Of a DNA stretch of 64,000 bases, positions 20,493 to 42,165 are shown piece by piece. Position 1 is the first letter of the stretch. Each line of letters starts with the position of its first letter. The notes beneath the pieces were generated by a model. It saw only the letters and a list, made by a program, of their open reading frames with translations. It ran no database searches and was not told where the DNA came from. A program made the translations under genes and the position numbers. Source of the DNA: Candidatus Danuiimicrobium aquiferis (GTDB lineage Bacteria > Omnitrophota > Omnitrophia > Omnitrophales > Danuiimicrobiaceae); assembly GCA_001804285.1 (NCBI GenBank), contig MHFR01000037.1, positions 19,552-83,551 of the forward strand. Reading direction: 5' to 3'.

Positions 20493-21050
20493 TTGAATAT
20501 ACCGAATTTTATCACACTCATACGAATCTTACTTGTCCCGGGTATTGTAACTTGCATTGCTTACGCAAATAACACACAGCAGAATTTAAAACTTTGCGCA
20601 TTTCTCCTTTTTATTGTTGCCATTATCACAGACGGTTTGGATGGATATATTGCACGCCGATTCAATTTAAAAACTCAACTGGGCACCTTCTTAGATCCAT
20701 TTGCGGATAAGTTGCTTTTGGTATCCTGCTTCGTCGCCATTTCACTGTCCAGCGCTTATCTTATCAAGCCACCGGCATGGATTATCATCATCATTGTCTT
20801 CAGAGAACTCGTCCTTGTTTGCGGACTTTTGATTCTTTTTTTCACCACGAACAAAATGACCATCAGACCAAACTATTTCGGAAAAATCACAACCGTCCTT
20901 CAAATGATCGCTGTGATCATGCTGCTTGGTCAATGGCATATCACCGAATATCTTTGGTACATCCTTGCGATCGTAACGAGCGCATCAGGCCTCATTTATG
21001 TATTCCGCGACCTCAAACAAATGAATTCGAACGGAAAACATTTAGCTTGA
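20493..21050 (+). CDS. pgsA: CDP-alcohol phosphatidyltransferase (PgsA-like)
   Basis: 185 aa, multi-TM, with DGLDGYIARRFNLKTQLGTFLDPFADK (the D-G-x2-A-R-x8-G-x3-D-x3-D motif). Confidence 0.8.
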   Translation: MNIPNFITLIRILLVPGIVTCIAYANNTQQNLKLCAFLLFIVAIITDGLDGYIARRFNLKTQLGTFLDPFADKLLLVSCFVAISLSSAYLIKPPAWIIIIIVFRELVLVCGLLILFFTTNKMTIRPNYFGKITTVLQMIAVIMLLGQWHITEYLWYILAIVTSASGLIYVFRDLKQMNSNGKHLA

Positions 21051-21074
21051 CAGACCCATCAATATTTATATAAT
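21047..21074 (+). promoter_or_regulatory. sigma70 consensus promoter (TTGACA-16-TATAAT) for the PC4-like gene
   Basis: TTGACA at 21047-21052 overlaps the pgsA stop codon. A 16-nt spacer leads to TATAAT at 21069-21074. AAAGGAGA RBS sits before the ATG at 21153. Confidence 0.55.
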
Positions 21075-21411: not shown

Positions 21412-21440
21412 TTTACAAGGTTTGGCTAAGTCTGTATAAT
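21412..21440 (+). promoter_or_regulatory. sigma70-type promoter upstream of recA (TTTACA-17-TATAAT)
   Basis: TTTACA at 21412-21417, a 17-nt spacer, TATAAT at 21435-21440, about 130 nt upstream of the recA ATG. A short GC dyad (GGCGCGA-N6-TCGCGCC, 21540-21560) abuts the start codon. Confidence 0.45.
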
Positions 21441-21572
21441 TCAACATGTTACGAATAAAAACCGGTTTCATAGCTTCAGAAATAACCGCATTATTTTCTG
21501 ACATCATTTTTCTACGATTCCGGAATAAAAATTTTCCATGGCGCGAGGCAATTCGCGCCGAAGGGGTTCAAA

Positions 21573-22667
21573 ATGACAATCAAAAAGAAAACAGAAACTA
21601 AAGAACAACCAACCAGCAAAGCTTCAATAGAAAAACAAAAAGCACTGGAGCTAACTCTACAGCAAATTGAAAAACAGTTCGGAAAAGGCGCAATCATGAC
21701 GCTCGGCCAAGATGTCAGCAAAGACTGGGAAGCCATTTCAACGGGCGCGCTAAGTCTTGACATTATTACCGGAATCGGCGGCATTCCCCGAGGACGGATA
21801 GTTGAAATTTATGGGCCGGAAGGCAGCGGAAAAACTACGCTGACGCTGAGTGTTCTTTCACAAGTTCAAAAAAAGGGGGGCGTTGCAGCCTTTATTGATG
21901 CAGAACATGCGCTCGACCCCACCTACGCAAAAAAATTAGGCGTTAAGCTTGAAGAAATTCTGATTTCGCAACCGGATTCCGGCGAACAGGCCCTTCAAAT
22001 CGTGGAAATGCTTGTCCGTTCTAATGCGATTGATCTGATTGTCGTCGACTCCGTCGCAGCTCTTACGCCGCGCGCAGAAATCGAGGGAGAGATGGGCGAT
22101 GCACACATGGGATTGCAAGCACGCCTGATGTCACAGGCATTGAGAAAGCTGACGTCCATCGCCAGCCGCTCAAAAACCTGTATCATTTTTATCAACCAGC
22201 TCCGGCAGAAAATCGGAATTGTTTTTGGTAATCCCGAAACCACGCCGGGCGGAACAGCGCTAAAATTTTATTCTTCTATGCGCCTCGACATCCGAAAAAT
22301 AGCTTCCATCAAAAAAGGGGAAGACATTATCGGGAATCGTGTCAAAGTAAAAGTCGTAAAGAATAAATGCGCCGCTCCGTTTAAGACTTGTGAGTTTGAC
22401 ATTATGTTTGACGAAGGAATTTCGCGTTCATCAAGCATCCTCGATATGGCGCTGCAATATGAAATTCTGGAAAAGTCGGGGACGTGGATTACCTACGGGC
22501 CTGAAAAACTCGGTCAAGGGCGTGAAGCCGTCCGCTATTTCTTAAAAGAAAACCCCAACTTACTTGATGAAATTGAAGCCAAAGTCAAAGAACGGCTGGT
22601 GACGGATTTGGCGGCCGGAATTGATATCACCAGACGCCCGGAAGTTGAAGCCGAAAGTAAGAAATAA
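21573..22667 (+). CDS. recA: recombinase RecA
   Basis: 364 aa. Walker [10 protein letters not shown] and the RecA L1/L2 regions, with an N-terminal Lys/Glu-rich extension of about 25 aa. Confidence 0.95.
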
Positions 22668-22696
22668 TTTACCAAACGGTGGTCACAAACAAAAAT

Positions 22697-22730
22697 ACGG
22701 TGGGTAAAATATTTATCCGCCGTTTTTTTA
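22697..22730 (+). terminator. weak hairpin plus T7 between recA and recX (possible attenuator)
   Basis: ACGGTGG-N13-CCGCCGT followed by TTTTTTT at 22723-22729. Confidence 0.3.
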
Positions 22731-22754
22731 TCAACCCTCAAAGGCCGGATATCC

Positions 22755-23258
22755 ATGGAAGCCCCTACGACACCGGATTCAAAGTTGAAGCAAGGATATA
22801 TCTATGCAGTCCGTCTTATGGCAATGTCGAATCGGAGCAGGAACGACATCGTTCGGCATATGCAGAAGAAAGGTTATGACGATACGATCATTGCCAACGT
22901 CATTGATCGACTTGAACGCGAAGGCTTTTTAAATGAAAAGAAAACATTAACACAGGCTGTTCAATACGCCATCCAGGGAAAACGGCAAGGCCGGATCCGG
23001 ATGAAATTTGAGTTGAAGCGGAAAGGCTATAAAACAAATTTAATTGACGAAGCATTAAGCGCCTACTCTCGCGAGACAGAGCTCGACTTGGCCCGTTCGC
23101 TTGCGATAGAGCAAATCCATCGGCATCCGAATCTTGACCCCGTCAAAAAAAAGAAACGCCTTTACGATTTTTTGATTCGAAAAGGATTTGATTTTAATTT
23201 ATGCCGTGACATTGTCACAGAGGCCATGAAAACTTCTTCCGGAGAATCCAAAGAATAA
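22755..23258 (+). CDS. recX: recombination regulator RecX
   Basis: 167 aa of helical-repeat protein immediately downstream of recA. recA-recX-alaS is the conserved order. Confidence 0.75.
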   Translation: MEAPTTPDSKLKQGYIYAVRLMAMSNRSRNDIVRHMQKKGYDDTIIANVIDRLEREGFLNEKKTLTQAVQYAIQGKRQGRIRMKFELKRKGYKTNLIDEALSAYSRETELDLARSLAIEQIHRHPNLDPVKKKKRLYDFLIRKGFDFNLCRDIVTEAMKTSSGESKE

Positions 23259-23273
23259 GATTTTGGGAAAGAA

Positions 23274-25868
23274 ATGAAAACTGCCGAAATACGAAAAAGC
23301 TACTTAGATTTTTTTAAAAGCAAGGGCCATTCGGTCATTAAGAGTGATTCGCTCATTCCTCAGAGCGATCCGACGCTCTTGTTTACGGGTGCCGGGATGA
23401 ATCAATTTAAAGAATATTTTCTCGGCATCAAAACGGACCTCAAGCGGGCCACCTCATCGCAAAAGTGCTTGCGCACGGGCGATTTGGATGAAGTCGGCAA
23501 AACGCCTTACCACCATTCTTTTTTTGAAATGCTCGGCAATTTCTCCTTCGGTGATTACTTCAAAGAAGAGGCCATCGCGTGGGCATGGGAATATCTGACA
23601 AAAACATTGAAGATTCCGGCTGAACGGCTTTTTATCAGCGTTCACCGGAACGATCAGGAAGCATTTGATATTTGGTCAAAAAAAATCGGAATTAAAAAGG
23701 AACTCATCGCAAGAATGGGCGATCATTCTAATTTCTGGCCTGCTGATGCACCGGAATCCGGACCGAACGGTCCCTGTGGCCCGTGTTCAGAAATCTATTA
23801 CGAACAAAATGCTGAATGGTTTCCGAATTGTGACCGTTCAAAGTTTTGGATCGAAGACGAATCTCGCCGGTATGCGGAAATTTGGAACTTGGTTTTTACG
23901 CAATATGACCGCCAAAGCGACGGTTCTCTCATTCCGCTCAAGAATAAAAACATCGATACCGGAATGGGGCTCGAGCGTCTTGCCTGTGTCATTCAGGGGA
24001 AAAAGACCAATTTTGAAACCGATATATTCGAGCCGATCTTAACAGCGTTAAAAAACTGTTTCAGGGGAACCCTTCCCGCCCCGATCACTCGTTTATATGC
24101 GGTCGCTGACCATGCGCGCGCGGCCGTTGTCTCAATTTCAGACGGAGCGTATCCTTCAAACGAAGGGCGCGGCTACGTCATTCGCAAACTCATCCGGCGT
24201 GCTGTGTGGCAAGCAAAAATGGCCGGCATGAAAGATTCGTTCATGGCGAAAATTGTCCCGGACATTATCAGTTCGCTTCGGGATGCCTATCCGGAGCTCG
24301 ATCAGTCACGTCAAAGTGTTGAAAAAGTCATCGCAAACGAAGAAGAACGCTTCATTGAAACGTTGGACAAAGGACTTATCGTCTTATCCCGGAAAATCGA
24401 GGATGCTAAAACAAAGAAAAATAAATCCTTGTCGGGCGAAAACGTATTTCTTCTTTATGATACTTACGGTTTCCCCGAGGAATTAACACGCGTGATTGCG
24501 GATGAACAGGGAGTTGCCATCGAAAAAGGAACCTTTAACCGCCTTCTTGATGAACAACGCGCGCGCGCAAAGGAATCAAGTAAAATTGCTGATTCGATTT
24601 TCGTTATTTCCGACGAAGACCTGGAATCGAGATCTATCCCTAAAACAACCTTTTTAGGTTATGAAAAATTGGCGGCCGAAGCCAAAGTCATTTATTTTAA
24701 GAGCACGGAAGAAACCGGCGCGATTATCCTCGATCAGACCCCGTTCTATCCCGAGGGCGGTGGACAAGTCGGAGCTCGCGGGAAAATTTACTCTGACAAA
24801 TTCGAATTTGATGTCCGCGAAACACAGTCAAAAGGACAAGTCATTTATCATTACGGGAAAATGATTAAAGGCATCGCCAAAATAGGCGCGGCATGCAAAG
24901 CCGAGGTAAATCTTGATCTTCGAAACGCAACGAAGAGAAATCATACCGCGACCCATCTTCTTCAATCGGCTTTGAGGAAAGTTTTAGGGACGCATGTCCG
25001 CCAGGTTGGTTCCTATGTCGGTTTCGAAAAACTCCGTTTCGATTTTACTCACGGGGCGGCATTACTTCCGGAAACCGTAAAACAAATAGAAGAAGAAGTG
25101 AACTTGAGCATCTTGCAAAATCGGGAAGTTGAAATCGAAACAATAAGCTATGATCAAGCGATTCAAAAAGGCGCTTTGGCCTTTTTCGGAGAAAAATACG
25201 GGAAAGATGTCCGCCTTGTTAGCGTCCCGGAAGTGAGCCGGGAACTTTGCGGAGGAACCCATTGCGAGCGAACGGGCGATATCGGCGGATTCTCCATCAT
25301 CTCTGAAACTTCGATTAGCAGTGGCACTCGCCGAATTGAGGCAATAACAGGACTCAATACGATTCAGTATGTCAATGACCTTCGCGATCTGTTAGCGAAA
25401 TTATCGTCCATTTTAAAAGTCGGAATCGACGACATCCCTGAAAGAATCGAAAAACTTCAGAAACGAATTAAAGAACTGGAAAAGGGAATCCTTCAAAAGT
25501 CACAGGATCATGTCGATCTTGACGCCCTAATAAGCCATGCTCAAAAATGTGGAAATGTGGCGGTCATTTCGGCTATGATGGAGGGCAAAGACTTATCGGT
25601 TTTACGGCAAATTGCAGATAAGCTTAGAAGTAAAACAAAAGAAACAATTTTGGTTCTCTTTGGGACGACAGACGAAACAGTCAGCATGGTCGTCGCCTTG
25701 ACAAAAGATTTAAACAATTCACAATTTGACGCCCGCAAAATTGCCGCACAATTAACACCGCTCATTGATGGAAGTGCGGGCGGCAGAAAAGATTGGACAC
25801 AGGGCGGAGGAAAATCACTTTCGGGAATCCAGAAAGCTCTCGAGATATTACCGACAATTATCAACTGA
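23274..25868 (+). CDS. alaS: alanine--tRNA ligase
   Basis: 864 aa. Class II catalytic core, editing-domain HxxxH/CxxxH (HTATHLL ... CGGTHC) and a C-terminal DHHA1-like domain. Confidence 0.95.
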   Translation: MKTAEIRKSYLDFFKSKGHSVIKSDSLIPQSDPTLLFTGAGMNQFKEYFLGIKTDLKRATSSQKCLRTGDLDEVGKTPYHHSFFEMLGNFSFGDYFKEEAIAWAWEYLTKTLKIPAERLFISVHRNDQEAFDIWSKKIGIKKELIARMGDHSNFWPADAPESGPNGPCGPCSEIYYEQNAEWFPNCDRSKFWIEDESRRYAEIWNLVFTQYDRQSDGSLIPLKNKNIDTGMGLERLACVIQGKKTNFETDIFEPILTALKNCFRGTLPAPITRLYAVADHARAAVVSISDGAYPSNEGRGYVIRKLIRRAVWQAKMAGMKDSFMAKIVPDIISSLRDAYPELDQSRQSVEKVIANEEERFIETLDKGLIVLSRKIEDAKTKKNKSLSGENVFLLYDTYGFPEELTRVIADEQGVAIEKGTFNRLLDEQRARAKESSKIADSIFVISDEDLESRSIPKTTFLGYEKLAAEAKVIYFKSTEETGAIILDQTPFYPEGGGQVGARGKIYSDKFEFDVRETQSKGQVIYHYGKMIKGIAKIGAACKAEVNLDLRNATKRNHTATHLLQSALRKVLGTHVRQVGSYVGFEKLRFDFTHGAALLPETVKQIEEEVNLSILQNREVEIETISYDQAIQKGALAFFGEKYGKDVRLVSVPEVSRELCGGTHCERTGDIGGFSIISETSISSGTRRIEAITGLNTIQYVNDLRDLLAKLSSILKVGIDDIPERIEKLQKRIKELEKGILQKSQDHVDLDALISHAQKCGNVAVISAMMEGKDLSVLRQIADKLRSKTKETILVLFGTTDETVSMVVALTKDLNNSQFDARKIAAQLTPLIDGSAGGRKDWTQGGGKSLSGIQKALEILPTIIN

Positions 25869-25878
25869 CAGAAAAAAT

Positions 25879-27156
25879 ATGCAGATATTCAATTGGGAAA
25901 AGCAAACGCTTAAAAAAATCAACCGTCCGATCGGCTATGAAGCTGACAAGGAATTAATCAAAAAAGTCAGCCGGATCGTTTTCGAAGTAAAAGCAAAGGG
26001 TGATTCCGCGCTGCTTAAATTTACCCGCCAATTCGACGGACTATTAATGCCGGCAAAGCGAATCGCAGTCAAAGAAAGCGATATTAATCGGGCATATGAG
26101 AAAATCAATTTCGCGTTTGTCCCGCTTCTAAAACAAGTTCGTGACAACGTGACCGCTTATTACGAAGCCGAACTACGGCCCTCTTTTACCATCAAGGGAA
26201 ACGACGGCATCCTCCTTGGAAAAGAATACCGTCCCATCGAACGCGTCGGAGTTTACATTCCGGGCGGAACCGCACCGCTTGTTTCGACAGTTTATATGAC
26301 GTTAATTCCTGCAAAAGTTGCCGGCGTTAAAGAAATTGCGATTGCAACACCGCCAAACCGAGACACGGGCGAAATCGATCCGCACATCCTGGTCGTGGCA
26401 GATTTGCTCGGCGTAAAAGAAATTTATCGGGTTGGCGGAGCACAGGCAATTGCAGCCCTGGCATTCGGAACAAAAACCATTCGAAAAGTTGATAAAATTG
26501 TTGGCCCCGGAAATCAATATGTTGCCGAAGCAAAGCGGCAAGTTTATGGATTTGTGGATATCGACATGGTCGCGGGCCCCAGCGAAGTTGCTATCCTCGC
26601 CGACCAGGATGCCGATCCAAATTATGTGACTTGCGATCTGCTGGCACAGGCGGAACACTTTGGCGGAATTTCTTATCTTGTCACCACCTCGAAAAAACTG
26701 GCAGAAACGATTAAAGGCCGCGTTGAACAAGGTTATATTATTCTTGTCAAAAATTTAAAAGAAGGGTTTGATGTCGTTAATGAAATCGCACCGGAACACC
26801 TTGAAATTATGACGGAAAATCCGGAAGATTGCCTCAAGTACATCAATCATGCCGGTGCTATCTTTTTAGGCCCCTATTCACCCGCAGTCATTGGCGATTA
26901 TGTTGCCGGGCCAAGCCACGTTCTCCCGACAAGCGGAACAGCTCGGTATTATTCGCCGCTCAGCGCCGCATCATTTATCAAGGGCTCTCAAATCATCCGT
27001 TACACAAAAGAAGCACTGGCAAAAGTCAGGGAGCCGGTTCGGAAGCTTACGGAAATCGAGGGATTGATTCTTCACCGGATATCTCTCGAATCAAGGTTTG
27101 TGGACGAATTAACAAATTCAAAAGCAGAAAAAGAAAAGGAAAAAACGAATGCCTAA
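25879..27156 (+). CDS. hisD: histidinol dehydrogenase
   Basis: ATG at 25879 (MQIFNWEKQ...) lies 10 nt after the alaS stop. The ORF track's 25765 start would overlap alaS. Confidence 0.9.
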   Translation: MQIFNWEKQTLKKINRPIGYEADKELIKKVSRIVFEVKAKGDSALLKFTRQFDGLLMPAKRIAVKESDINRAYEKINFAFVPLLKQVRDNVTAYYEAELRPSFTIKGNDGILLGKEYRPIERVGVYIPGGTAPLVSTVYMTLIPAKVAGVKEIAIATPPNRDTGEIDPHILVVADLLGVKEIYRVGGAQAIAALAFGTKTIRKVDKIVGPGNQYVAEAKRQVYGFVDIDMVAGPSEVAILADQDADPNYVTCDLLAQAEHFGGISYLVTTSKKLAETIKGRVEQGYIILVKNLKEGFDVVNEIAPEHLEIMTENPEDCLKYINHAGAIFLGPYSPAVIGDYVAGPSHVLPTSGTARYYSPLSAASFIKGSQIIRYTKEALAKVREPVRKLTEIEGLILHRISLESRFVDELTNSKAEKEKEKTNA

Positions 27157-27745
27157 GCGCAGGTCAAAGATTCTTAGGGAAACCAAAGAAACGAAAATTA
27201 AAATTGTTTTAAATATAGACGGCTGCGGGAAATCAAAAATTTCGACCGGAATCCCGTTTCTCGATCACATGCTGACGAGTCTGGCCAAGCACGGTTTGCT
27301 GGATCTTCAAGTCAAAGCCAAAGGGGACTTGGCGGTTGATATTCATCACACCAATGAAGATATCGGAATTTCCTTAGGGAAAGCTTTCGCGAAAGCATTA
27401 GACAAAAAAACCGGCATTCAACGTTTCGGCTTTTCATCGGTTCCAATGGACGATACGCTTGTTCGTATAACGCTCGATTTTTCAGGACGGCCGGCATTTA
27501 ACGTCATTCAAAATAAAGGTGTTAAATTTACACGAATGGAAACATATTCCTTCCACGACGCGACCGAATTTCTGCGGGCATTTTCACAAAATTCGGAAAT
27601 TAACCTTTTCGTCGAAATTGTCAGCGGCCAAGACACGCATCACATTATTGAAGCGACCTTTAAAGCACTCGCAAAAGCTCTGGAAATGGCCACTCGCCGC
27701 AATCCGCGCATCAAAGGCGTGCCCTCCACCAAGGGAACATTATAG
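27149..27745 (+). CDS. hisB: imidazoleglycerol-phosphate dehydratase (monofunctional)
   Basis: 198 aa with the D-x-H-H-x2-E metal motifs (DIHHTNED ..HHIIEA). Overlaps the hisD stop. Confidence 0.9.
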   Translation: MPKRRSKILRETKETKIKIVLNIDGCGKSKISTGIPFLDHMLTSLAKHGLLDLQVKAKGDLAVDIHHTNEDIGISLGKAFAKALDKKTGIQRFGFSSVPMDDTLVRITLDFSGRPAFNVIQNKGVKFTRMETYSFHDATEFLRAFSQNSEINLFVEIVSGQDTHHIIEATFKALAKALEMATRRNPRIKGVPSTKGTL

Positions 27746-27752
27746 TCATGCC

Positions 27753-28376
27753 ATGGTAAAAAATCTTATCGGAATCATCGATTATGGCATGGGGAATCTG
27801 AGAAGCGTCAGCAAAGCTTTTGAAGCGCTCGGCGGAAGTGTCTATGTCGGGAGCAATCCTGAAAAATTATCAAGATCAAATAAATTGGTTCTTCCGGGTG
27901 TCGGCGCATTCGGCGATGCCATGAGTGAACTTAAAAAAAGAAAACTCATTTTAACGATTCGTAATTTCATTAATGACGGAAAGCCTTTTTTCGGAATTTG
28001 TTTGGGCCTACAACTTTTGTTTGAAGGGAGCGATGAGAACAAAGGAATCCCCGGGCTCGGAATTTTCAAAGGAACCGTAAAACGGTTTCCCAAAGACCAA
28101 ACAAATGAATTGAAAATCCCGCACATGGGTTGGAATCAAGTGAATATTAAAATGAAATCGCCGATCCTGAAAAAAATTCTGAAAAATAGTCATTTTTATT
28201 TCGTCCATTCCTATTATGGAAAACCGAAACGGACGGAAATCATCGCCGGAGAGACCGATTACGGAATTACATTTCCGGCCATATTATCACAAGCAAATAT
28301 TTTTGCAGCCCAGTTTCATCCCGAAAAAAGCCAAAAAATGGGACTGCAAATTCTAAAAAACTTTATTGAGATCTGA
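27753..28376 (+). CDS. hisH: imidazole glycerol phosphate synthase, glutaminase subunit
   Basis: ATG at 27753 (MVKNLIGIIDYGMGN). Catalytic GICLGLQ (Cys) and a C-terminal HPEKS motif. The ORF track's longer 27519 start overlaps hisB. Confidence 0.9.
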   Translation: MVKNLIGIIDYGMGNLRSVSKAFEALGGSVYVGSNPEKLSRSNKLVLPGVGAFGDAMSELKKRKLILTIRNFINDGKPFFGICLGLQLLFEGSDENKGIPGLGIFKGTVKRFPKDQTNELKIPHMGWNQVNIKMKSPILKKILKNSHFYFVHSYYGKPKRTEIIAGETDYGITFPAILSQANIFAAQFHPEKSQKMGLQILKNFIEI

Positions 28377-28377
28377 C

Positions 28378-29109
28378 ATGTTAATCATTCCGGCAATCGA
28401 CTTAAAGGGTGGTTGCGTCGTTCGTTTAACACAGGGAAAACGCGATCAACAGGTGGTTTATTCTCACACCCCCGAAACAGTTGCGCTTCTCTGGCAGCGC
28501 GCTGGCGCAAAAATGATTCATATTGTTGATCTGGACGGAGCGTTTGAAGGCCATCGCCAAAATTTAGGAAGTTTAAAAAATATTATGACTGTCGTCAATG
28601 CTTCAATCCAATTCGGCGGAGGATTGCGGACATTTGACGATGTTAGAGAAATCTTGGAATCCGGCGTCTCCCGGGCTGTCCTTGGCACCAAAGCCACCGA
28701 TATTGATTTTCTGAAAAACCTTCTCAAAACTTTTGCCGAACGGATTGCGGTGGGCGTTGACGTAAAAGATAAAATCATCCAAACTCACGGATGGGTGAGC
28801 GGGGATGCGAAATACGAATTGCTGCCTTTTTGCAAGCAACTTCAAGACATGGGCGTCAAAACGATTATTTATACCGATATTCACCGTGATGGAATGCTGA
28901 TGGGTCCGAACATAAAAGGATTGGAACAACTTCTAAATGACACCAGCATGGATATCATTTTGTCCGGAGGCATATCGAACCTGTATGATTTAAAACAGCT
29001 TTCAAAAATTAAAACCGAAAAATTCAAAGGCGTCATCATCGGGAAAGCACTTTACGAACAAAAAATTGATCTGAAAGAGGCAATCGAGACCTATCAAAAT
29101 TCTAACTAA
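28378..29109 (+). CDS. hisA: ProFAR isomerase
   Basis: ATG at 28378 (MLIIPAIDLKGG) immediately after the hisH stop. The ORF track uses an upstream TTG at 28366. Confidence 0.9.
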   Translation: MLIIPAIDLKGGCVVRLTQGKRDQQVVYSHTPETVALLWQRAGAKMIHIVDLDGAFEGHRQNLGSLKNIMTVVNASIQFGGGLRTFDDVREILESGVSRAVLGTKATDIDFLKNLLKTFAERIAVGVDVKDKIIQTHGWVSGDAKYELLPFCKQLQDMGVKTIIYTDIHRDGMLMGPNIKGLEQLLNDTSMDIILSGGISNLYDLKQLSKIKTEKFKGVIIGKALYEQKIDLKEAIETYQNSN

Positions 29110-29119
29110 AGGTGACTTT

Positions 29120-29533
29120 ATGTTCCAAGAAATCCAGCAATCTATCGGGGACGGGCGAAACTGGTCGTGGGCATTGATCGCAATTGTATCAATTCTTGTC
29201 GGCCTTACTTTTCGCCAGCTTGTCCTTGGCGATTTGTTACGCAAGTTAAAAAATAAAAATAAAACGTGGTACAAAAAAACTCAACAGCGATACGAGTCAC
29301 TATCCCTCATCGGTTGGGGCTTGTTTGTGATATCCATTTTTGGCTTTATCATGATCTGGCATAATGAATCGTTATTCACACGTTACTTGAATTTAAGCTA
29401 TTGGTTGATTGTATTTTCCGGCTTAATCGTTGTGTCTTACATCTTTCATTTGCGGGCCTATATGCAAGCCATGGTGGATTCGATACAGGAAAATATTATG
29501 ACTGAGAAAGAATTAACGCCCCATGCTGACTAA
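29120..29533 (+). CDS. hypothetical small membrane protein (3 predicted TM helices) embedded between hisA and hisF
   Basis: 137-aa ORF that fills the 413-nt gap between hisA and hisF with overlapping ends. It has three hydrophobic segments of about 20 aa each. No family recognised. Confidence 0.45.
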
Positions 29534-30281
29534 GCGGATTATCCCTTGTTTGGATGTCAATCGCGGGCGCGTTGTCAAAGGAGTTAACTTTGTCAATCTG
29601 CAAGATGCGGGCGACCCCGTCGCATGTGCAAAAGCTTATGATAATTCTGCGGCAGATGAATTGATTTTTTTAGATATTACAGCGTCGCACGAATCAAGAC
29701 CAATCACATTGCAGATGGTCGAAAAAGTGGCCGAAACCATATATATACCGTTCACCGTCGGCGGGGGAATTCGATCTTTGGAAGATATCCGTCAATTGCT
29801 AAAAGCGGGGTGTGATAAAGTTTCACTCAACACGAGCGTCGTCGAAAATCCGATTCTGGTTGCGGAAGCAAGTACACGGTTCGGTTCTCAATGTATTGTT
29901 GTCGCAATCGATGCCAAAAAAACCGGCAAAAATAAATGGAGCGTTTATACCCATGGCGGACGCAAAGAAACACCTCTTGATGTAATCGAATGGGCTCAAA
30001 AATGCGTAAAACTCGGGGCCGGCGAAATTTTACTAACCAGCATGGATCGCGATGGAACCAAGATGGGTTACGATCTTGAATTGACAAAACGCGTTTCAGA
30101 GGCCGTTTCAATTCCGGTGATCGCTTCCGGCGGCGCAGGTTCTCTGCGGGATTTTTATGACGGATTCGTGAGCGGAAAAGCTAGCGCAGTTCTTGCAGCC
30201 TCCTTATTTCATTTTGGAGAATTAACAATACAACAAGTTAAACAATATTTGAAACGAAAAGGTTTACCAATCCGCATCTAA
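29523..30281 (+). CDS. hisF: imidazole glycerol phosphate synthase, cyclase subunit
   Basis: 252 aa, [12 protein letters not shown]..., canonical HisF. Confidence 0.95.
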
Positions 30282-30296
30282 ACACAAGAGGTTTAA

Positions 30297-30677
30297 ATGA
30301 TTAATTTTAAATTTGATGAACAGGGGTTAATGCCGGCAATCGTTCAGGATATCAAAACCAAAGAAGTCTTGATGGTCGCATATGTCAATGAAGAGTCTCT
30401 TAAAAAAATGCTGAAAATTAAAAAAACATGTTTTTATTCAAGATCTCGAAAAAAATTCTGGGTGAAAGGCGAAGAATCCGGTCACATTCAAATCGTTAAA
30501 AAAGTATTCACGGATTGCGATCGGGACACACTCCTCATTCAAGTTGCTCAAAAAGGCGGCGCATGTCATCTGGGTTATAAAAGTTGTTTTGTGTTTCCCG
30601 TCAACGAAAAGGGAAATATGAAACCGGTTACGGCAAAACAATTATTTGATCCTAACAAGGTTTATAAGAAAAAATGA
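30297..30677 (+). CDS. hisI: phosphoribosyl-AMP cyclohydrolase (HisI domain only)
   Basis: 126 aa with a C-x15-C-x6-C zinc-site pattern (CDRD...C.LGYKSC). No HisE domain is fused. Confidence 0.85.
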
Positions 30678-32155
30678 AGATTACTCCTTCTTATCCGGAA
30701 TTTTTAAAACTTTGCAAAAAAGGAAACACCATTCCGGTTTCGTTCGAATTTCCGGCAGACCTTGAAACGCCGGTCTCCGTTTTTCTAAAAATTGCGTCAA
30801 AAAAAGAAAATGCGTTTCTTCTCGAATCCGTTGAGCTCGGGGAAAGATTAGGGCGTTTTTCATTCATTGGCACTGATCCTGACGCAATCCTCGAATATTC
30901 ACGCGGTTCATGTCACCTGATTAAAAAGGGGCGGCGGAAAACATTCAAAGACCAAAAAGATCCGCTGCACATCATCGAACGAATTATGGAATGTTACCGC
31001 TATGTTCCGGATCAAACACTTCCCAAATTTACGGGTGGATTTGTCGGCTATATCGGATATGAATTAGTCAGCCAGTTTGAAGACATTAAATTAAAAACGA
31101 AACCCGGTTTAAACTTTCCGGATGCGGTCTTGTTTTTCGCACGCAACCTGATTGCTTTTGATCACATCAAACATCATTTAAAAATTATTCACCTCGCCCA
31201 TGTCGATCGCAAACCCGAAAGAATTTATCAAAATGCAATCATGCAACTGAAAAAAATTGAATCGCAACTAAAGCGTCCGCTTCCGCTGAAATCAGGCCTT
31301 TTAAATGTCGAACAAAGCGGCTCGAACACCACCTTCCGATCAAACATAACCCGAAGGCAATTCGAGGGAATGGTTAAAAAAGCGAAGGAATATATCCGCG
31401 CAGGAGACATTATCCAGACTGTCTTGTCACAACGATTCGATTTGGGGCTCGTCAACAACGAATTCGAAGTTTATCGGAGACTCCGATCTTTAAATCCGTC
31501 TCCCTATATGTTCTACTTCAAATATGGCAAGAAAACCCTCGTTGGATCGTCACCAGAAGTTTTAACCCGGAAAACAAAAAACATAGCGGAAGTAAAACCG
31601 ATTGCGGGAACACGTCCGAGGGGTGATACGGAAAAAGAAGATCTGGCATATGAAAATGCGCTCCGTTCATCGCCCAAAGAGCTGGCCGAACATTTGATGT
31701 TAGTCGATTTAGGCCGCAACGATTTAGGCCGGGTTTCGGAGCGAAGCAGCGTCCATGTCAAACAATTCGGACGAGTTGAGCGATATTCTCACGTCATGCA
31801 TTTGGTAAGCGACGTTGTTTCTAAATTAAAAACAGGAAAGACGGCATTTGATCTATTACGAGCAACGTTTCCCGCCGGAACCGTTTCAGGTGCGCCGAAA
31901 ATCAGGGCCATGCAAATCATTAACGAATTGGAACCCGAAAAACGCGGACCGTATGCGGGCTCACTCGGTTATTTCAGTTTAAACGGCGATATGGATATGT
32001 GCATTATCCTCAGAACCATCTTCATTGATCACGGAAGGGCCTATGTGCAAGCGGGTGCCGGCATTGTCTATGATTCGAAACCGAAAAACGAATATCAAGA
32101 AACAATTAACAAAGCAAAAGCATTGTTTTTAGCAGTCAAAAAAAGCAAAACGTGA
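30674..32155 (+). CDS. trpE: anthranilate synthase component I
   Basis: 493 aa. Chorismate-binding C-terminal domain ([11 protein letters not shown]..., GYFS). The start ATG overlaps the hisI stop (ATGA). Confidence 0.9.
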
Positions 32156-32162
32156 GTCCGCC

Positions 32163-32729
32163 ATGATTTTAATGATCGACAATTATGATTCATTCACTTA
32201 TAACCTGGTCCAATATTTATATGAGCTTGGCACGGACGTTAAAGTGTATCGCAATGATAAAATTTCCGTTTCCAAAATCAAGAAAATGAAACCGGAAGGA
32301 CTCGTTATTTCTCCGGGCCCATGCACACCTCGGGAAGCCGGAATTTCAAATGAGGCCATTCAGGCTTTTAGCGGAAAGATTCCCATTCTGGGCGTTTGCC
32401 TCGGACATCAGTGCATCGGACACGTTTTTGGCGGGAGAGTCATTCGCGCAAAAAAAATTATGCATGGGAAAACTTCGAAAATTTATCATGACCATTCCCA
32501 TCTTTTCAAAAAAATCGAAAATCCGTTCACCGCAACACGCTATCACTCACTGCTGGTTGAACGAAAAACACTCCCGTCACTGCTTAAAATTACGGCATGG
32601 ACAAAAGAGCAGGAAATCATGGGGCTTAAACACAGCCACCATCCCACGTTCGGCGTTCAGTTTCATCCGGAATCAATCCTAACAAATTGCGGAAAAAAAA
32701 TATTATCCAATTTTCTCGAGTTGCTGTAA
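32163..32729 (+). CDS. trpG: anthranilate synthase component II (glutamine amidotransferase)
   Basis: 188 aa with the catalytic triad context GVCLGHQ ... HPES. Confidence 0.9.
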
Positions 32730-32732
32730 AAA

Positions 32733-33773
32733 ATGATCAAATTGAATCTTGTCATCGACCGCCTATTACTCGGAAAAGATCTAAGTGTCCGTGAAATGAA
32801 GGATGCTTTCCGCTATTTGTTTCTAACAAAAAAATCCAATCTCAATTTTGGCGCAACCGTGCTCCTCCTCCTGCAAAAAAAAGGAATCCATTTAAACGAG
32901 CTTTACGGGTTGGTAAAGCTTGTTCACGAACTGGAGCCACCTCTACGGCTCGGAAAGTCACTCACGTTAGTTGACGGCTGCGGCACTGGCGGAGATAACG
33001 CGCATACATTTAATATTTCAACGCTTGCATGTCTGGTCGCGAGCGGGGCAGGGGCTTCGATTGCAAAACACGGAAACCGAAGCATTTCATCTCAATGCGG
33101 CAGTTCGGACTTGATGGAAAGTTTGGGTGTTCGAATTGACGCGAGCCCAAAATTGATGCTTCACGCAATCGAGAAACATGGTTTCGGTTACTTTCATGCC
33201 CCGTTATACCATCCGATATTTAAACGGATTCAACCTATCCGACAATCTTTGGGCCGAAAAGGAATCAAAACTATTTTCAATCTCGTTGGACCTCTCGTGA
33301 ATCCATTACGTCCAAAACGGCAAGTCATTGGCGTTTTTCGAAAAGATTATGCCGCCATAGTAGCACAAACAGCAAAAAAAATAGGATATGATCATGCTGT
33401 TGTTTTTTATAATCTGGGAGGTTTCGACGAATTAACCATCTTTTCAAAAGCTTTTCTGTTCGAAATTAAACGCCACCAATTAAATCATTCGATATTCAAT
33501 CCTCGCGAATTGAAACTGAGATCCGGGAATAAAAACGAAATTGCGGGTAAAAATAAAAAATATAACACCCGACTCGCTCATCAAATCCTGCTTGGAAAAG
33601 TAAAGGGAACAAAACGGAACGTTGTCATTTTGAACGCAGCGGCAATTTTGTATGTCGCGGGTTTGGCCAAATCCATCAAGGAGGGATTGTCATTATCGGC
33701 GGAATCCATCGACAGCGGTTCTGCATGGAAATCTTTACAAAATCTGGTAAAATCAAGCCATGATTCTAGATAA
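32733..33773 (+). CDS. trpD: anthranilate phosphoribosyltransferase
   Basis: 346 aa. GTGGD and KHGNRS motifs. Confidence 0.9.
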   Translation: MIKLNLVIDRLLLGKDLSVREMKDAFRYLFLTKKSNLNFGATVLLLLQKKGIHLNELYGLVKLVHELEPPLRLGKSLTLVDGCGTGGDNAHTFNISTLACLVASGAGASIAKHGNRSISSQCGSSDLMESLGVRIDASPKLMLHAIEKHGFGYFHAPLYHPIFKRIQPIRQSLGRKGIKTIFNLVGPLVNPLRPKRQVIGVFRKDYAAIVAQTAKKIGYDHAVVFYNLGGFDELTIFSKAFLFEIKRHQLNHSIFNPRELKLRSGNKNEIAGKNKKYNTRLAHQILLGKVKGTKRNVVILNAAAILYVAGLAKSIKEGLSLSAESIDSGSAWKSLQNLVKSSHDSR

Positions 33774-34572
33774 AATAGTCTGTTATAAAAAACGGGAATT
33801 ACTCATTCAGAAGCAGAAAATGCCACTCGCGCATTTACTCAAAATAGCCCGTCAACTCCCCCCTAAAAAACACGGCTTTATGAAAGCCTTGAACCGCAAA
33901 AAAGGGATTAATTTGATTTGCGAGCTTAAAAAAGCCTCACCCTCTCACGGGCTTATCCGAAAAAACTTCTCGCCGGTTTCACTCGCAAAAGATTTCGAAA
34001 AAGCAGGAGCGTGCGCAATCTCAATCTTGACTGAAGAACGTTTCTTTAAAGGGAGCCCAAAAATATTGAAACAGGTTCGCCGCAACACTAAGTTACCGAT
34101 TTTACGAAAAGATTTCATCATCGATCCTTATCAAGTCTGCGAAACATTCGTGCTCGGCGCAGATGCTTTTCTCCTCATTGCTTCGTTGTTAGACGACAGA
34201 AATCTGGAAATGTTAATCAGCCTTGGCGAATGGTTCGGTATGGACCCGCTTATCGAAGTCCGTTCCAAACACGAACTTAGACGAGCATTAAAAGCCGGTG
34301 CAAAAATCATCGGCATCAATAACCGGGATTTAAAAACATTACGCATTAATCCATCCTATGCAAAACAATTACTTTCATCCGTACCCAAAACAATCATTCC
34401 AGTCATTGAAAGCGGAATCGAGTCACACAAACAGATCTGCGAGTATTTAAATTTAAGGGTTAATTCTTTTCTCGTCGGAACTTCGCTCATGAAATCCAGA
34501 AACGTCAAATCGACGATCCTGGAAATGCTGGGCAAAACCAAAAAAGGAAAACCAAATAATGCCAAAAATTAA
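33760..34572 (+). CDS. trpC: indole-3-glycerol phosphate synthase
   Basis: 270 aa, TIM-barrel IGPS (ICELKKASPS, INNRDL). Confidence 0.9.
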   Translation: MILDKIVCYKKRELLIQKQKMPLAHLLKIARQLPPKKHGFMKALNRKKGINLICELKKASPSHGLIRKNFSPVSLAKDFEKAGACAISILTEERFFKGSPKILKQVRRNTKLPILRKDFIIDPYQVCETFVLGADAFLLIASLLDDRNLEMLISLGEWFGMDPLIEVRSKHELRRALKAGAKIIGINNRDLKTLRINPSYAKQLLSSVPKTIIPVIESGIESHKQICEYLNLRVNSFLVGTSLMKSRNVKSTILEMLGKTKKGKPNNAKN

Positions 34573-35194
34573 GATTTGCGGAAATACAAATTTCGATGAC
34601 GTCAAACTTGCGATTGATTTGGGAGCCGACTATCTTGGATTTGTTTTTGCGGAAAGCAAGCGAAAGATTGATCCCGTTGTTGCGAAATCCATCATTGGCA
34701 AATTCCCACATTTCAAAACCTTCGTCGGTGTCTTTGCGAATCAATCGAAAGATGAGGTAGCATCAATCGCAAACCTTTTAGGGCTTAAGTGGCTTCAGTT
34801 TCACGGAGACGAAACATCTCGGCATTGTGATTATTTTACTGATAAAGGCTTCAACGTCATCAAAACCTTCCGCATCAAGGATCGAATGAGTTTAAAACGC
34901 CTGGAGGAATATAATGTCGAAGCTTTTCTATTTGATACCTACTCAAAAAACGAACTGGGCGGAACCGGGAAAACATTTGATTGGAAAATCATAGAAGATA
35001 AACCTTATGTCCGGGAAAAATTATTTCTAGCCGGCGGATTAACCGTGGATAATATTGACGCGGCCCTGAGCACCATTAAGCCTTATGCCGTTGATACAGC
35101 CAGCGGAATCGAAAAAAGCATCGGACAGAAAAATCATGATCTGTTGAGAAAAATGATTGAAAAAGTCAAAGCCGTGCAGTATTCATACAAATGA
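34559..35194 (+). CDS. trpF: phosphoribosylanthranilate isomerase
   Basis: 211 aa, MPKIKICGNTN... This is the last trp gene here; no trpB/trpA follow. Confidence 0.85.
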   Translation: MPKIKICGNTNFDDVKLAIDLGADYLGFVFAESKRKIDPVVAKSIIGKFPHFKTFVGVFANQSKDEVASIANLLGLKWLQFHGDETSRHCDYFTDKGFNVIKTFRIKDRMSLKRLEEYNVEAFLFDTYSKNELGGTGKTFDWKIIEDKPYVREKLFLAGGLTVDNIDAALSTIKPYAVDTASGIEKSIGQKNHDLLRKMIEKVKAVQYSYK

Positions 35195-35218
35195 ACCTTT
35201 TAAAAAACCCATGAGAGC

Positions 35219-36397
35219 ATGATCACCAACGAATTTATAGACCGATTGATCCATCGAATCGATAAAATTGATAAAAAAAACCTGCAAAGTTATGTTCTCG
35301 AACTTGGACAGGATAGAAATTTTCTTTTCTCCCTGTTCGATCATATTCTCGAAGGCGTGATGGTCCTGTCGGCAAAACAGGAAGTCGTTTTCATTAACCG
35401 CCGGATCCGGCAACTCTTCGACCTGTCCTCAGAGCAGTCCCATGAGCGAAATTATATGACTATTCTACAGGACACCCGATTAAAAGCCCGCGTCCAATCC
35501 GCGCTGCAGGAACGGAATGAAGTTTCCCATGAAAACATTGAGGTTTTAATTCCACGTCCAATGCTGATTAAGTTATCGCTCAGATATGAAACCATCATGG
35601 CGAAAACATATTCTGTCATTCTCATCGAAAATATCAGCCAAAATGAAATTCTGATTCGCGAACAGTTTCAAAAAGAAAATTGGAAATCCATATTTGAATT
35701 GGCAGCGGGAATCGCCCATGAAATCGGCAATCCGCTCAATTCCATCAACATCCACTTAAAACTTCTTTCGAACAAAATACAATCCCTGAAACAAAAAAAT
35801 ACAGACCCTTTGACAAACGAACTCGCAATCCTCAGAGAAGAAACGAATCGCCTCGACGAAATCATCAGGAATTTTCTTCGGGCAACGCGGAAAAAACCTC
35901 TCAATTACGAATTGACCAATATCAATGATCTGATTTCCAAAACCGTTGACTTTCTCAGGCCAGAACTCAAAGAATCAAAAATTCAAGTGACACAACAGCT
36001 GAATGCCGAAATTCCGCTTTTTCTGATCGATCAGGATCGCATGCAACAGGTGTTCATCAATTTGGTTAAGAATTCTATTCAGGCTATGGTGCGCGGCGGA
36101 AAATTAAACATTCAGACGGGTTTAAAAGACAAATTATGTTTCATACAAATTCAGGATACCGGCGTCGGCATTCCGGAATCCAAACTTCCAAAAATATTCG
36201 ACGCCTATTTCACCACCAAGGAAGAAGGTAGCGGTCTCGGACTGATGATTGCCTATCAAATCATTTCGGAACATCACGGAAGGATCGAAGCCACAAGCAA
36301 GGTAAATATGGGCACTACTTTTCGAATCGTTCTTCCAATCCGAAAAGAAAAGCTTGAATTACCGCTTAATGAAACTTCCCAAAAAGGCAAAGGTTAA
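35219..36397 (+). CDS. cytoplasmic PAS-domain sensor histidine kinase
   Basis: 392 aa with no TM segment. H-box HEIGNPLNSI and an HATPase region (GSGLGLMIAYQII). Sits 24 nt after trpF. Confidence 0.8.
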   Translation: MITNEFIDRLIHRIDKIDKKNLQSYVLELGQDRNFLFSLFDHILEGVMVLSAKQEVVFINRRIRQLFDLSSEQSHERNYMTILQDTRLKARVQSALQERNEVSHENIEVLIPRPMLIKLSLRYETIMAKTYSVILIENISQNEILIREQFQKENWKSIFELAAGIAHEIGNPLNSINIHLKLLSNKIQSLKQKNTDPLTNELAILREETNRLDEIIRNFLRATRKKPLNYELTNINDLISKTVDFLRPELKESKIQVTQQLNAEIPLFLIDQDRMQQVFINLVKNSIQAMVRGGKLNIQTGLKDKLCFIQIQDTGVGIPESKLPKIFDAYFTTKEEGSGLGLMIAYQIISEHHGRIEATSKVNMGTTFRIVLPIRKEKLELPLNETSQKGKG

Positions 36398-36399
36398 TC

Positions 36400-37770
36400 A
36401 TGGGAATGTGGGCAACGATTTTAGTCGTCGATGACGAAAAAAATACACGGGAAGGAATCAAACCGATTCTTGAGTCATGGGATTACGACGTTGTCCTTGC
36501 GGAAAACGGAAAGGCGGCACTTGAACTCATGAAGGAAGATTGCCCGGATATTGTTTTGGCCGATCTAAAAATGCCGGAAATGGACGGCATTGAATTATTA
36601 AATACAGTCAAACGCAAATACCCGCAGGTTATCTTCATTGTCCTCACCGCCTACGGCACGGTTCAAACCGCCGTTAGCGCCATGCAAGACGGTGCCTATT
36701 ACTATTTGACCAAACCGGTTAATTTTGAAGAGCTGGAATTAATTCTTAAAAAAGCGCTCCACCAAAGATCTATAGAACAAGAAAATGTAAATCTCCGCGC
36801 AGAGCTCATGCAAGAACGGCATGAAGCAGGCGAAATCATCGGGAATTCAGAGACGATTAAGAAAGCCATCTCAACGGCAAACCAAGTTGCACAAACTGAC
36901 TCGACGGTTTTAATCCAGGGCGAAAGCGGAACCGGAAAAGAACTGTTTGCCCATTTAATCCATTTTGGAAGCTCCCGCAGAAATCAACCGCTGATCACTG
37001 TCCACATGGCCGCGCTTACGGAGACTTTACTCGCCAGCGAACTTTTTGGACATGAAAAAGGGGCATTCACCGGGGCAACCGAACGCCGAGTCGGTCGTTT
37101 TGAACGTGCAAACGGGGGAACGCTCTTCCTCGATGAAATATCGGAAATTCCGGAAGGCATGCAGACAAAGCTCTTGCGCGTCCTTCAGGACGGCCTGTTT
37201 GAACGGGTCGGGGGAACAAAAACGATCAAAACGGATGTTCGTTTGATTTGTGCCACCAACAAAAATTTAAAGGACGAGGTCACAAAAGGGAAGTTTCGCG
37301 AAGACTTATATTATCGGATCAATGTTATTTTGCTTGAAATTCCGCCGCTGCGCAACCGCCGATCGGATATTTCGCTTCTGGTAGATCATTTTCTAAATTA
37401 TTTTACACGAATTAACCGGAAAAATATCGATGGAATAACCCCGGAAGCAAGCCAGGCGCTCAAGCAATATTCATGGCCTGGAAATATCCGTGAATTAAAA
37501 AACGTGATGGAACGCGCCGTCGTTCTTGGAAACAACGGAACGATCGGCCTTGAACAATTTCCGGACGACATCAGGCACAATCAACCCATCCGTATAGAAT
37601 CCGACGCAACAACCACGAAATCAGTCGAATCGATTCGCGGAATGGAAGATCAAATGATCAGGAAGGCTCTCAAGCAATCCGGCGGAAACAAAAGTATCAC
37701 GGCCAAACGTCTCGGAATTTCCCGCAGAACGCTTTACAGGAAAATAGAAGAATATAAAATTTCCGACTAA
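36400..37770 (+). CDS. sigma-54-dependent response regulator (NtrC family: REC + AAA+ + Fis-type HTH)
   Basis: 456 aa. REC domain (ILVVDDE...D...KMPEMDG), Walker A GESGTGKE, the GAFTGA sigma54-contact motif, and a C-terminal HTH. Confidence 0.9.
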
Positions 37771-37772
37771 CC

Positions 37773-37965
37773 CGGTTATTCTCATCGTTTTTTTCACTCG
37801 CTGAGAATAACCGCTTTGGACAATATGGACGTGCTGTCCAAAGTTTTGCGCGCATAGACAAAACAGCGCGCAAAAGATAAGCCCTTTTGCGAAAGCAATT
37901 TAAATGATTTCCGCAAAAGCTCTTTGAGCGCATTTCTCATCCCTAAAGATGAGAAATGCGGGCTA
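37773..37965 (+). repeat. family-A composite structured repeat (at least 5 hairpins, divergent full-length copy)
   Basis: H1 CGGTTATTCTCA..TGAGAATAACCG. H2 CTTTGGACA..TGTCCAAAG. H3 TTTTGCGCGC..GCGCGCAAAA followed by ATAAGCCC. H4 TTTTGCG..CGCAAAA. H5 GCATTTCTCAT..ATGAGAAATGC followed by GGGCTA. Module order and spacing match copy 47128-47316, but the stem sequences differ by compensatory changes. Confidence 0.7.
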
Positions 37966-38159
37966 ATACTGGCACGCCAGTGTATCGATATGGCCCACTG
38001 CACATATCTTATCAATAAGTTTTTTGATGGACATTGCAAGTCGTTTCTTAATAACAAGTTATACTAGCAATAAAATCAATTGTTTGGCACGGAAATTGAT
38101 GTACTGAAGATAGAAATTGAAATCATTTACAACAATTTAATAAAAACAGGAGAATTAAA

Positions 38160-41024: not shown

Positions 41025-41072
41025 TAGTCTAAATTATATTTTACGTTTCCATCACATAAAACTGGAGGACTC

Positions 41073-42062: not shown

Positions 42063-42093
42063 TTAAACCGGCTTTACCATAGGCTCATGCTAA

Positions 42094-42165
42094 CCCGCCT
42101 TTCTCATCGATTTTGTAAATCGACGAGAAAGGCGCTTCGGGCATAATCAGTTGCGCCCAAAGTTT
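42094..42165 (+). repeat. family-A repeat, partial copy (H1+H2 modules)
   Basis: CCCGCCTTTCTCATCGATTTTGTAAATCGACGAGAAAGGCGCTTCGGGCATAATCAGTTGCGCCCAAAGTTT. Relative to 47128 it shows a compensatory GAC..GTC to GCC..GGC swap in the H1 stem. Confidence 0.65.

Follow-up and report, generated by a model that had tools for sequence, protein, structure and literature searches.

How many transcription units does a long run of co-directional genes hold when it strings together recA, recX and alaS, most of the histidine (his) and tryptophan (trp) biosynthesis genes, and a signalling pair? We examined this question in Candidatus Danuiimicrobium aquiferis (GTDB lineage Bacteria; Omnitrophota; Omnitrophia; Omnitrophales; Danuiimicrobiaceae), a member of the Omnitrophota, which are uncultured and often genome-reduced bacteria. 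The window that we analysed is the whole stretch of 64,000 nucleotides (nt) at positions 19,552 to 83,551 of the forward strand of contig MHFR01000037.1 (NCBI GenBank assembly GCA_001804285.1). A sequence-only reading of this DNA had taken everything from recA to an NtrC-type response regulator as one unbroken gene train, with his and trp translationally coupled in a single transcription unit. We think it probable, with some reserve, that the block consists of three nested units, a super-operon typical of its lineage with separable parts, and not one seamless operon.

The features of the block are as follows, in window coordinates. Comparisons are with ten further Omnitrophota contigs (L087 to L096), read as far as each contig reaches.

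21412..21440, + strand: recA promoter-like site TTTACA-17-TATAAT (11/12); hexamers identical in L087-L090, near-identical in L095 and L096 (TAAAAT as -10)
21573..22667, + strand: recA (Pfam RecA 3e-135)
22697..22730, + strand: intrinsic-terminator-like hairpin with a 12-bp stem, 3-nt loop and T7 tail (terminator scan, folding energy, relatives)
22755..23258, + strand: recX (three RecX HTH domains, Pfam)
23274..25868, + strand: alaS (Pfam tRNA-synt_2c 1.5e-180)
25879..27156, + strand: hisD, its ATG 10 nt past the alaS stop, with no Shine-Dalgarno site in this genome (Pfam, sequence reading)
27149..27745, + strand: hisB, IGPD domain (dehydratase) only (Pfam)
27753..28376, + strand: hisH (Pfam; start read from sequence)
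28378..29109, + strand: hisA (Pfam; TIGR00007 above cut-off)
29120..29533, + strand: open reading frame (ORF) for a 137-aa membrane protein with three predicted transmembrane segments, an orphan family inside the his genes (homologue search, hydrophobicity; no NCBIfam match)
29523..30281, + strand: hisF (Pfam)
30297..30677, + strand: hisI, monofunctional, cyclohydrolase only (Pfam PRA-CH; NF000768 above cut-off)
30674..30677, + strand: ATGA stop/start overlap of hisI and trpE (sequence reading)
30674..32155, + strand: trpE (Pfam; TIGR00564 above cut-off)
32163..32729, + strand: trpG (Pfam)
32733..33773, + strand: trpD (Pfam)
33760..34572, + strand: trpC (Pfam)
34559..35194, + strand: trpF (Pfam)
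35219..36397, + strand: cytoplasmic PAS-HisKA-HATPase sensor kinase (Pfam, NCBIfam, hydrophobicity)
36400..37770, + strand: REC-sigma54 AAA+-HTH_8 response regulator of the NtrC class, no equivalog (Pfam, NCBIfam)

The starts of hisD (25879) and hisH (27753) were set from the sequence and agree with independent gene calls. All gene identities named in the sequence-only reading were found again with Pfam, and HisI, HisA and TrpE also score above their NCBIfam equivalog cut-offs. The kinase, described there as cytoplasmic with a PAS domain, indeed lacks hydrophobic segments, and Pfam finds a PAS domain in it.

Re-reading the junctions gave the same gap sizes as before. In nt, these are recX to alaS 15, alaS to hisD 10, hisD to hisB -8, hisB to hisH 7, hisH to hisA 1, hisA to the membrane ORF 10, membrane ORF to hisF -11, hisF to hisI 15, hisI to trpE -4 (the ATGA), trpE to trpG 7, trpG to trpD 3, trpD to trpC -14, trpC to trpF -14, trpF to the kinase 24, and kinase to regulator 2. 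The part from recX to the regulator thus has 16 genes and 15 junctions in 15 kb, with each gap at most 24 nt and five stop/start overlaps. From recA to the regulator the genes lie on one strand with short or overlapping gaps, and the one exception is the gap of 87 nt between recA and recX. The + strand run extends far beyond the train described earlier, from 227 to 47792, with about 50 ORFs, all co-directional, including fmt, glycolysis genes, recG, fatty-acid synthesis genes and smc. Given this run, and given that about 58% of the junctions outside the train are also no longer than 28 nt, it is normal here for genes to be co-directional and tightly spaced. The run of 15 successive junctions of at most 24 nt is, for its part, three times the longest other such run in the window. 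The G+C content is even over the region (0.41-0.46).

The gene order recurs well beyond this assembly. An identical TrpE is found on 24 contigs from ENA, JGI, Logan and NCBI assemblies of Rifle-aquifer samples, and the gene order is the same in the six of these places that were displayed (15 similar ones were collapsed). The closest TrpE homologues are all from Omnitrophota. In L087 to L096, where TrpE is 53-66%, AlaS 46-59% and RecA 67-79% identical to the window's proteins, the full order is PC4-like ORF, recA, recX, alaS, hisDBHA, (membrane ORF), hisFI, trpEGDCF, kinase, regulator, spacer and dnaK, followed by an unknown ORF, moxR and a DUF58 gene. Two deeper lineages share the core recA-recX-alaS-hisDBHAFI-trpE: L010 has recA-htrA-recX-alaS-hisDBHAFI-trpEGDCF before unrelated genes, and in L015 recA-recX-alaS-hisDBHAFI-trpE is followed by secDF and mfd. 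The sequence-only reading had allowed that relatives might have independent his and trp operons, leaving this arrangement a unique artefact; instead, the order is kept in 12 of 12 related contigs. To judge from these gene orders, the block is old and typical of the Omnitrophota lineage. Genes have entered it in places: an amino-acid permease between recX and alaS in L091 (1191-2504) and L094 (1186-2499) and, between hisF and hisI, VanY in L092 (8689-9489) and a TPR-ORF-ABC-F-S4 set in L093 (6503-9469). The inserted genes join their neighbours by overlapping stop and start codons.

As a background sample we took 80 TrpE loci from many phyla among the matches listed, two of them labelled Omnitrophota. 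Among these, hisI lies within 200 nt 5' of trpE in 4 of about 76 informative loci (L010, L014, L015 and L035). Since L035 is a Poribacteria metagenome-assembled genome (MAG) and L014 a MAG labelled Clostridia, the hisI-trpE adjacency recurs outside Omnitrophota. In L035 (9455-11476) no other his gene is found within 9 kb upstream of the adjoining pair; in L014 the pair lies at 86-1950.

Where, then, does the run break? We propose that recA would be a unit of its own, with a conserved sigma70-type promoter in front and a terminator-like hairpin and T-run behind. Four relatives share the window's promoter-like site TTTACA-17-TATAAT exactly, and two others have a nearly identical one. The hairpin, ACGGTGGGTAAA-ATA-TTTATCCGCCGT followed by T7, ranks first among the + strand terminator-like sites of the 18 kb scanned (-23 kcal/mol, z = -2.9), where terminator-like sites overall are near chance (27 found vs 24.3 expected); from recX to the regulator the scan returned nothing comparable, and on folding the alaS/hisD, hisI/trpE and trpF/kinase junctions are unstructured. 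A related hairpin with a T-run (ACGGCGGA..TCCGCCGT) stands 3' of recA in L087-L089, and L091, L092 and L094 have other stable hairpins there, so that an internal terminator-like element, mostly with a T-run, recurs in most relatives. Two earlier statements had to be given up on this account: that recA-recX-alaS runs without a break, when its 87-nt gap carries a 12-bp stem and T7, and that the first strong hairpin comes right after the regulator stop, when a stronger terminator-like one already stands at 22697-22730. Across genomes, three gaps are constantly larger than the rest, namely those before recA, between recA and recX (34-248 nt) and between the regulator and dnaK (155-513 nt).

The recX ATG is about 4 bases past the T-run in L088, and in the window only about 25 nt are left. 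This space being too short for a promoter, transcription of recX and the genes 3' of it would need either read-through or promoters that lie 5' of the hairpin or overlap it. Most likely a long polycistronic mRNA runs from recX to the regulator in this genome, supplied by read-through from recA, and promoters hidden in coding sequence would possibly help to supply it.

The same three genes stand in identical order on the same strand in E. coli, where a terminator between recA and recX lets 5-10% of transcription through (PMC6662834). The hairpin found here in the same interval is probably a leaky stop, most likely holding recX low relative to recA as in E. coli. The two arrangements differ downstream: in E. 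coli alaS starts 127 nt past recX and is followed by csrA, whereas here it starts 15 nt past recX (in six relatives the two genes overlap by 4-17 nt) and runs directly into hisD. The E. coli alaS has its own autoregulated promoter.

Two further features lie upstream of recA.

21047..21074, + strand: sigma70-type promoter-like site TTGACA-16-TATAAT (12/12) before the PC4-like ORF; same element in L087-L090
21153..21398, + strand: small PC4-like ORF (81 aa) directly 5' of recA (Pfam PF02229); also in L087-L090, L095 and L096

The PC4-like ORF, with its perfect promoter match in the window, is thus present directly 5' of recA in the window and in six relatives, and its product may bind single-stranded DNA as a partner of the recA locus. 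In relatives, an inverted repeat, TAAG..(~18 nt)..CTTA, overlaps the conserved recA promoter (window 21412-21470 and L087-L090) around the -10 element and might serve as an operator, perhaps a LexA-like one. Between this promoter and the recA ATG, the window further carries about 115 nt of extra sequence with a GGCGCGAGGCAATTCGCGCC hairpin.

The his and trp genes are physically fused, as had been claimed: the ATGA overlap of hisI and trpE is read directly in the sequence and is kept across relatives. Of 13 genomes, nine have ATGA at this junction, two TAATG, one an 11-nt overlap and one a 6-nt gap, i.e. 12 have the stop/start overlap expected of a coupled pair. We measured Shine-Dalgarno strength as the duplex energy with the anti-Shine-Dalgarno sequence, taking medians over 11 genomes. 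The sites are strong at the genes that lead units (recA -8.2, dnaK -8.9 and hisI -7.0 kcal/mol) and weak or near zero at trpE (-1.1), trpD (-1.5), recX (-2.1) and alaS (-2.7 kcal/mol); at hisD, which starts 10 nt past alaS, the energy in this genome is 0.2, i.e. there is no site. The downstream gene of the hisI-trpE pair therefore has no ribosome-binding site of its own to speak of, and we infer, with good support, that trpE is translationally coupled to hisI by re-initiation at the hisI AUGA. Translation of trpD would likewise probably be coupled to trpG, and that of alaS to recX, because these genes start at most 15 nt past the preceding gene, or within it, and their ribosome-binding sites are weak or missing.

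The next seam lies before hisI. The hisF-hisI gap is 5-24 nt in the window and L087-L089 and 106-157 nt in L091-L096, and in L010 and L015 the two genes overlap by 4 nt. All six of L091-L096 carry a promoter-like element, (A)AGTGTA..cTTGACAca-N16/17-gGCATACT, about 65 nt 5' of hisI. In this clade hisI-trpEGDCF-kinase-regulator is, by this conserved element, predicted to be its own unit. The natural seam between his and trp is thus before hisI and not at hisI/trpE; contiguity of hisF and hisI looks ancestral and the promoter-bearing gap derived. Because six relatives carry this element, the block is not an obligate single transcription unit. From the earlier claim that his and trp are translationally coupled in one transcription unit, we therefore keep the coupling, given that 12 of 13 genomes have the overlap and that trpE lacks a Shine-Dalgarno site, and drop the obligate single unit. 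From hisI onward the genes would form a separable sub-operon, hisI-trpEGDCF-kinase-regulator, with hisI as the leading cistron and a promoter in the sister clade. Comparison with relatives gave no conserved promoter-like site in the interior of the window's block. Two matches were set aside as promoters: TTGACA-16-CACAAT (10/12) in the 3' end of alaS (25698-25725), the position of which is not conserved in relatives, and TTAACA-16-AATATT in the 3' end of hisF, which is explained by conserved codons and is degenerate in relatives.

What the signalling pair controls is best approached from its other neighbour, dnaK. The two-component genes adjoin trpF and precede dnaK in the window and in L087-L096. 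Their junction with trpF is a gap of 24 nt here; in relatives it varies between a gap of 11 nt and an overlap of 38 nt, and 7 of 10 have an overlap.

37773..37960, strand. (none given): four-hairpin cluster 3' of the regulator stop, a window-specific insertion (not in relatives)
37971..37986, + strand: GGCAC-N6-GTATC palindrome-like site, candidate regulator binding site (pattern devised post hoc; 4/8 relatives)
38085..38099, + strand: sigma54-type -24/-12 motif TGGCACGGAAATTGA, 75 nt 5' of the dnaK ATG (motif scan; 11/11 orthologous spacers)
38160..40082, + strand: dnaK, which leads the next unit (Pfam)

The regulator has a sigma54-interaction AAA+ domain (PF00158, 2e-70) and HTH_8, which places an activator of the right kind next to a candidate sigma54 promoter. 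The motif TGGCAY-N5-TTG[AT] is present in 11 of 11 regulator-dnaK spacers, 43-75 nt 5' of the dnaK ATG, and the remainder of the spacer (37771-38159 in the window) has diverged beyond easy alignment. The only other exact match on the gene strand of these loci is inside trpF of L093, and none is intergenic. By itself the motif does not stand out statistically in the window, and its weight comes from its conserved position only. GTGTC/GACAC palindromes are found about 115 nt 5' of the -24/-12 motif in several spacers, and a candidate regulator-site pattern, G[GAT]CAC-N5-9-GT[AG]T[CG], in 4 of 8; both patterns were devised post hoc, and the second is a lead only. We think that the regulator probably activates the sigma54-type promoter of dnaK rather than his/trp.

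In domain composition (a REC-AAA+ sigma54-interaction-HTH_8 regulator and a PAS kinase) the pair resembles NtrBC, AtoSC and ZraSR, and the -24/-12 type motif about 115 nt 3' of palindromic sites recalls the adjacent sigma54 promoters of such systems. Identity with AtoSC, NtrBC or ZraSR was rejected, every score being far under its NCBIfam cut-off (AtoS 234 vs 646, AtoC 498 vs 714, NtrC 436 vs 559). HsfAB-lonD of M. xanthus is a case of an NtrC-class two-component system driving an adjacent sigma54 promoter. The present system differs from NtrC-class systems in its presumed target, dnaK. Literature searches turned up no precedent for a sigma54-controlled dnaK, and we know of none.

Two side observations belong to this end of the block. 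The four hairpins at 37773-37960 (about 190 nt) occur 3' of the regulator stop in this genome only. Counting variants, the window has 11 copies of the hairpin arm GATGAGAAATGCG vs 2.9 expected (e.g. at 42096-42134), which suggests a small REP-like repeat family. On the far side of dnaK (40083-47115) follow an unknown 313-aa membrane ORF, moxR, a DUF58 gene, an unknown ORF, batA, batB and a TPR protein gene; this Bat/MoxR-VWA 'aerotolerance'-like cluster is kept in relatives as far as the contigs reach.

Several other explanations have to be weighed against the three nested units. The window comes from a metagenome-assembled genome, and the train might in principle be an artefact of assembly or binning, or else the product of a recent rearrangement found nowhere else. 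We give this a negligible probability: an assembly artefact is excluded by the identical TrpE contigs and the same order across independent assemblies from five sources, the even G+C content speaks against it too, and because the order recurs in ten divergent Omnitrophota contigs and its core in two deeper lineages, the arrangement is neither an artefact nor a one-off. A single seamless unit, running from the recA promoter through his and trp to the two-component system, with co-regulation through the use of phosphoribosyl pyrophosphate (PRPP) and enzyme paralogy, would account for the co-directional genes, the tiny gaps from recX to the regulator, the order conserved in 12 related contigs, and the lack of promoter room between the recA hairpin and recX. 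It is nonetheless unlikely, given the strong terminator-like hairpin behind recA in most relatives and the conserved promoter-like element before hisI in six of them. The rationale from PRPP and from TIM-barrel paralogy, which the sequence-only reading had put forward, is not evidence for it: the train lacks hisG, whose product catalyses the step of the his pathway that consumes PRPP, and hisA and trpF are both separate, ordinary genes by NCBIfam. More can be said for conserved synteny without long co-transcription, in which the order persists because the genome is compact and seldom rearranged, and the modules (recX-alaS, hisDBHAF, hisI-trp and kinase-regulator) are each driven by promoters in upstream coding sequence. 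Tight spacing is normal in the window, the block sits in a 47-kb single-strand run of unrelated housekeeping genes, insertions and partial loss are tolerated, an internal promoter exists in the sister clade, and the 3' end of alaS holds a 10/12 promoter-like site. Against these stand trpE, trpD, alaS and recX, which consistently lack ribosome-binding sites, and the stop/start overlaps, which are kept across about 50% protein divergence; both point to coupled translation, and so to a shared mRNA, at those junctions. The candidate internal promoters of this genome are also not conserved in position, and the hisF match follows from conserved codons. We therefore regard it as a possible but rather doubtful reading.

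The preferred reading of three nested units and a regulator acting on dnaK has its own difficulties, and the following points weigh against it. AlaRS is essential and normally abundant, so that it would be awkward for its synthesis to rest on leaky read-through and on coupling to a recX made at a low level, which points to further, undetected promoters within recA or recX; the 10/12 match in alaS has already been mentioned. The block withstands disruption, as seen from the permease, VanY and ABC-F insertions and from L015, in which trpGDCF has been lost. We infer both read-through of the recA hairpin and co-transcription from sequence. As for dnaK, the -12 element of its motif is TTGA or TTGT vs the canonical TTGC, the motif occurs once in the window vs 0.66 expected and so is not rare by itself, and rpoN was not seen within the 64 kb available.

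A bolder extension would make the block an ancient, phylum-wide super-operon in which synthesis of the Trp enzymes is tied to hisI translation and the sigma54 two-component system, co-transcribed with trp, switches on dnaK. We consider this combination quite improbable. If true, the supply of the two most PRPP-hungry amino acids, the levels of AlaRS and RecX, and chaperone capacity would be wired together in genome-reduced Omnitrophota, and sigma54-dependent dnaK would be a so far undescribed way of controlling a heat-shock gene.

Among the closest known arrangements is that of Actinobacteria, in which his genes and trp genes are found together in a single neighbourhood (PMC13055916). The likeness to this context, that of priA, lies in the gene order: the his order is D..B-H-A-(extra gene)-F-I, followed by trpE on the same strand, so that here too hisI is followed by trpE in a shared his/trp neighbourhood. 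In L021, an Actinomycetota MAG in our sample, hisBHAFI is present with trpE 6.3 kb further. Actinobacteria lack trpF and use the dual-substrate PriA instead (PMC13055916, PMC5036795), whereas hisA and a separate trpF are both present here, and HisA passes TIGR00007 and not the hisA-trpF model (165 vs 306). The Actinobacterial clusters have hisC within and trpC-trpB-trpA following; none of hisC, trpB and trpA is in the window, and trpE directly overlaps hisI. Here, moreover, recX-alaS lies upstream and a sigma54 two-component system downstream.

The aromatic supraoperon of B. subtilis, in which the trp operon is nested with a his gene, is similar in that operons of different pathways are fused and co-directional, with internal promoters or terminators. 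The genes differ (aro, tyr and hisC there), and so does control: B. subtilis trp is controlled by TRAP, whereas the block here has no leader, T-box or attenuator, with no Rfam match and gaps that are too short. 'Supraoperon', which beside 'uber-operon' is a name for such gene-order conservation in general, has been used as a term (PMC1173090). Clustering of his with trp, clustering of recA-recX-alaS, and fusion of operons into supraoperons are already known, and this combination extends known patterns of gene clustering without overturning current understanding. The block joins recX-alaS, his and trp enzymes and two signalling genes and has neither a leader nor an attenuator specific to a pathway, an economy of regulation in streamlined genomes, and it can be used as a synteny marker of Omnitrophota. 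The hisI-led trp sub-operon is a natural experiment in operon fusion and splitting, with a promoter gained in one clade and absent in another. The sigma54-type dnaK promoter with a dedicated kinase and regulator would be the more unusual result, if confirmed.

The his and trp pathways are incomplete in the block. The earlier reading had listed hisG, hisC, hisE and hisN, and trpB and trpA, as missing from the train, and Pfam found none of them there or in the whole 64-kb window, nor any further his or trp gene outside the train. A 2026 preprint reports that the phylum keeps its Trp, His and Arg pathways whole while others are lost, and that nearly all of 176 complete Omnitrophota genomes have trpA/B and hisG/C (bioRxiv 10.64898/2026.06.07.730766). 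Given these complete pathways, the missing genes are most likely sited elsewhere in the genome. The gene arrangement from recA to the regulator is not described in that preprint. Neither the Rfam search nor the tRNA scan returned anything in the whole window, and hence there is no T-box, leader or riboswitch by Rfam.

The membrane ORF between hisA and hisF (29120-29533) encodes three hydrophobic segments. Its family comprises 131 clusters, each named member of which is from Omnitrophota, and it has no convincing Pfam match (a sub-threshold Tetraspanin hit only) and no NCBIfam family. It is not in L087, L010 or L015. The protein evolves fast, with 18-38% identity vs 50-75% for the neighbouring proteins, and its invariant residues are R32, Y58, G65, W66, F69, H110 and A113. 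An identical copy is at NCBI under Omnitrophica bacterium RIFCSPLOWO2_12_FULL_44_17.

Finally, the strand of the genes switches at about 47800: those from 227 to 47792 are all on the + strand and those from 47862 to 63483 all on the - strand, and past this point the GC skew falls to about -0.15. The point of convergence could be the replication terminus, or it could reflect mere gene-strand bias.

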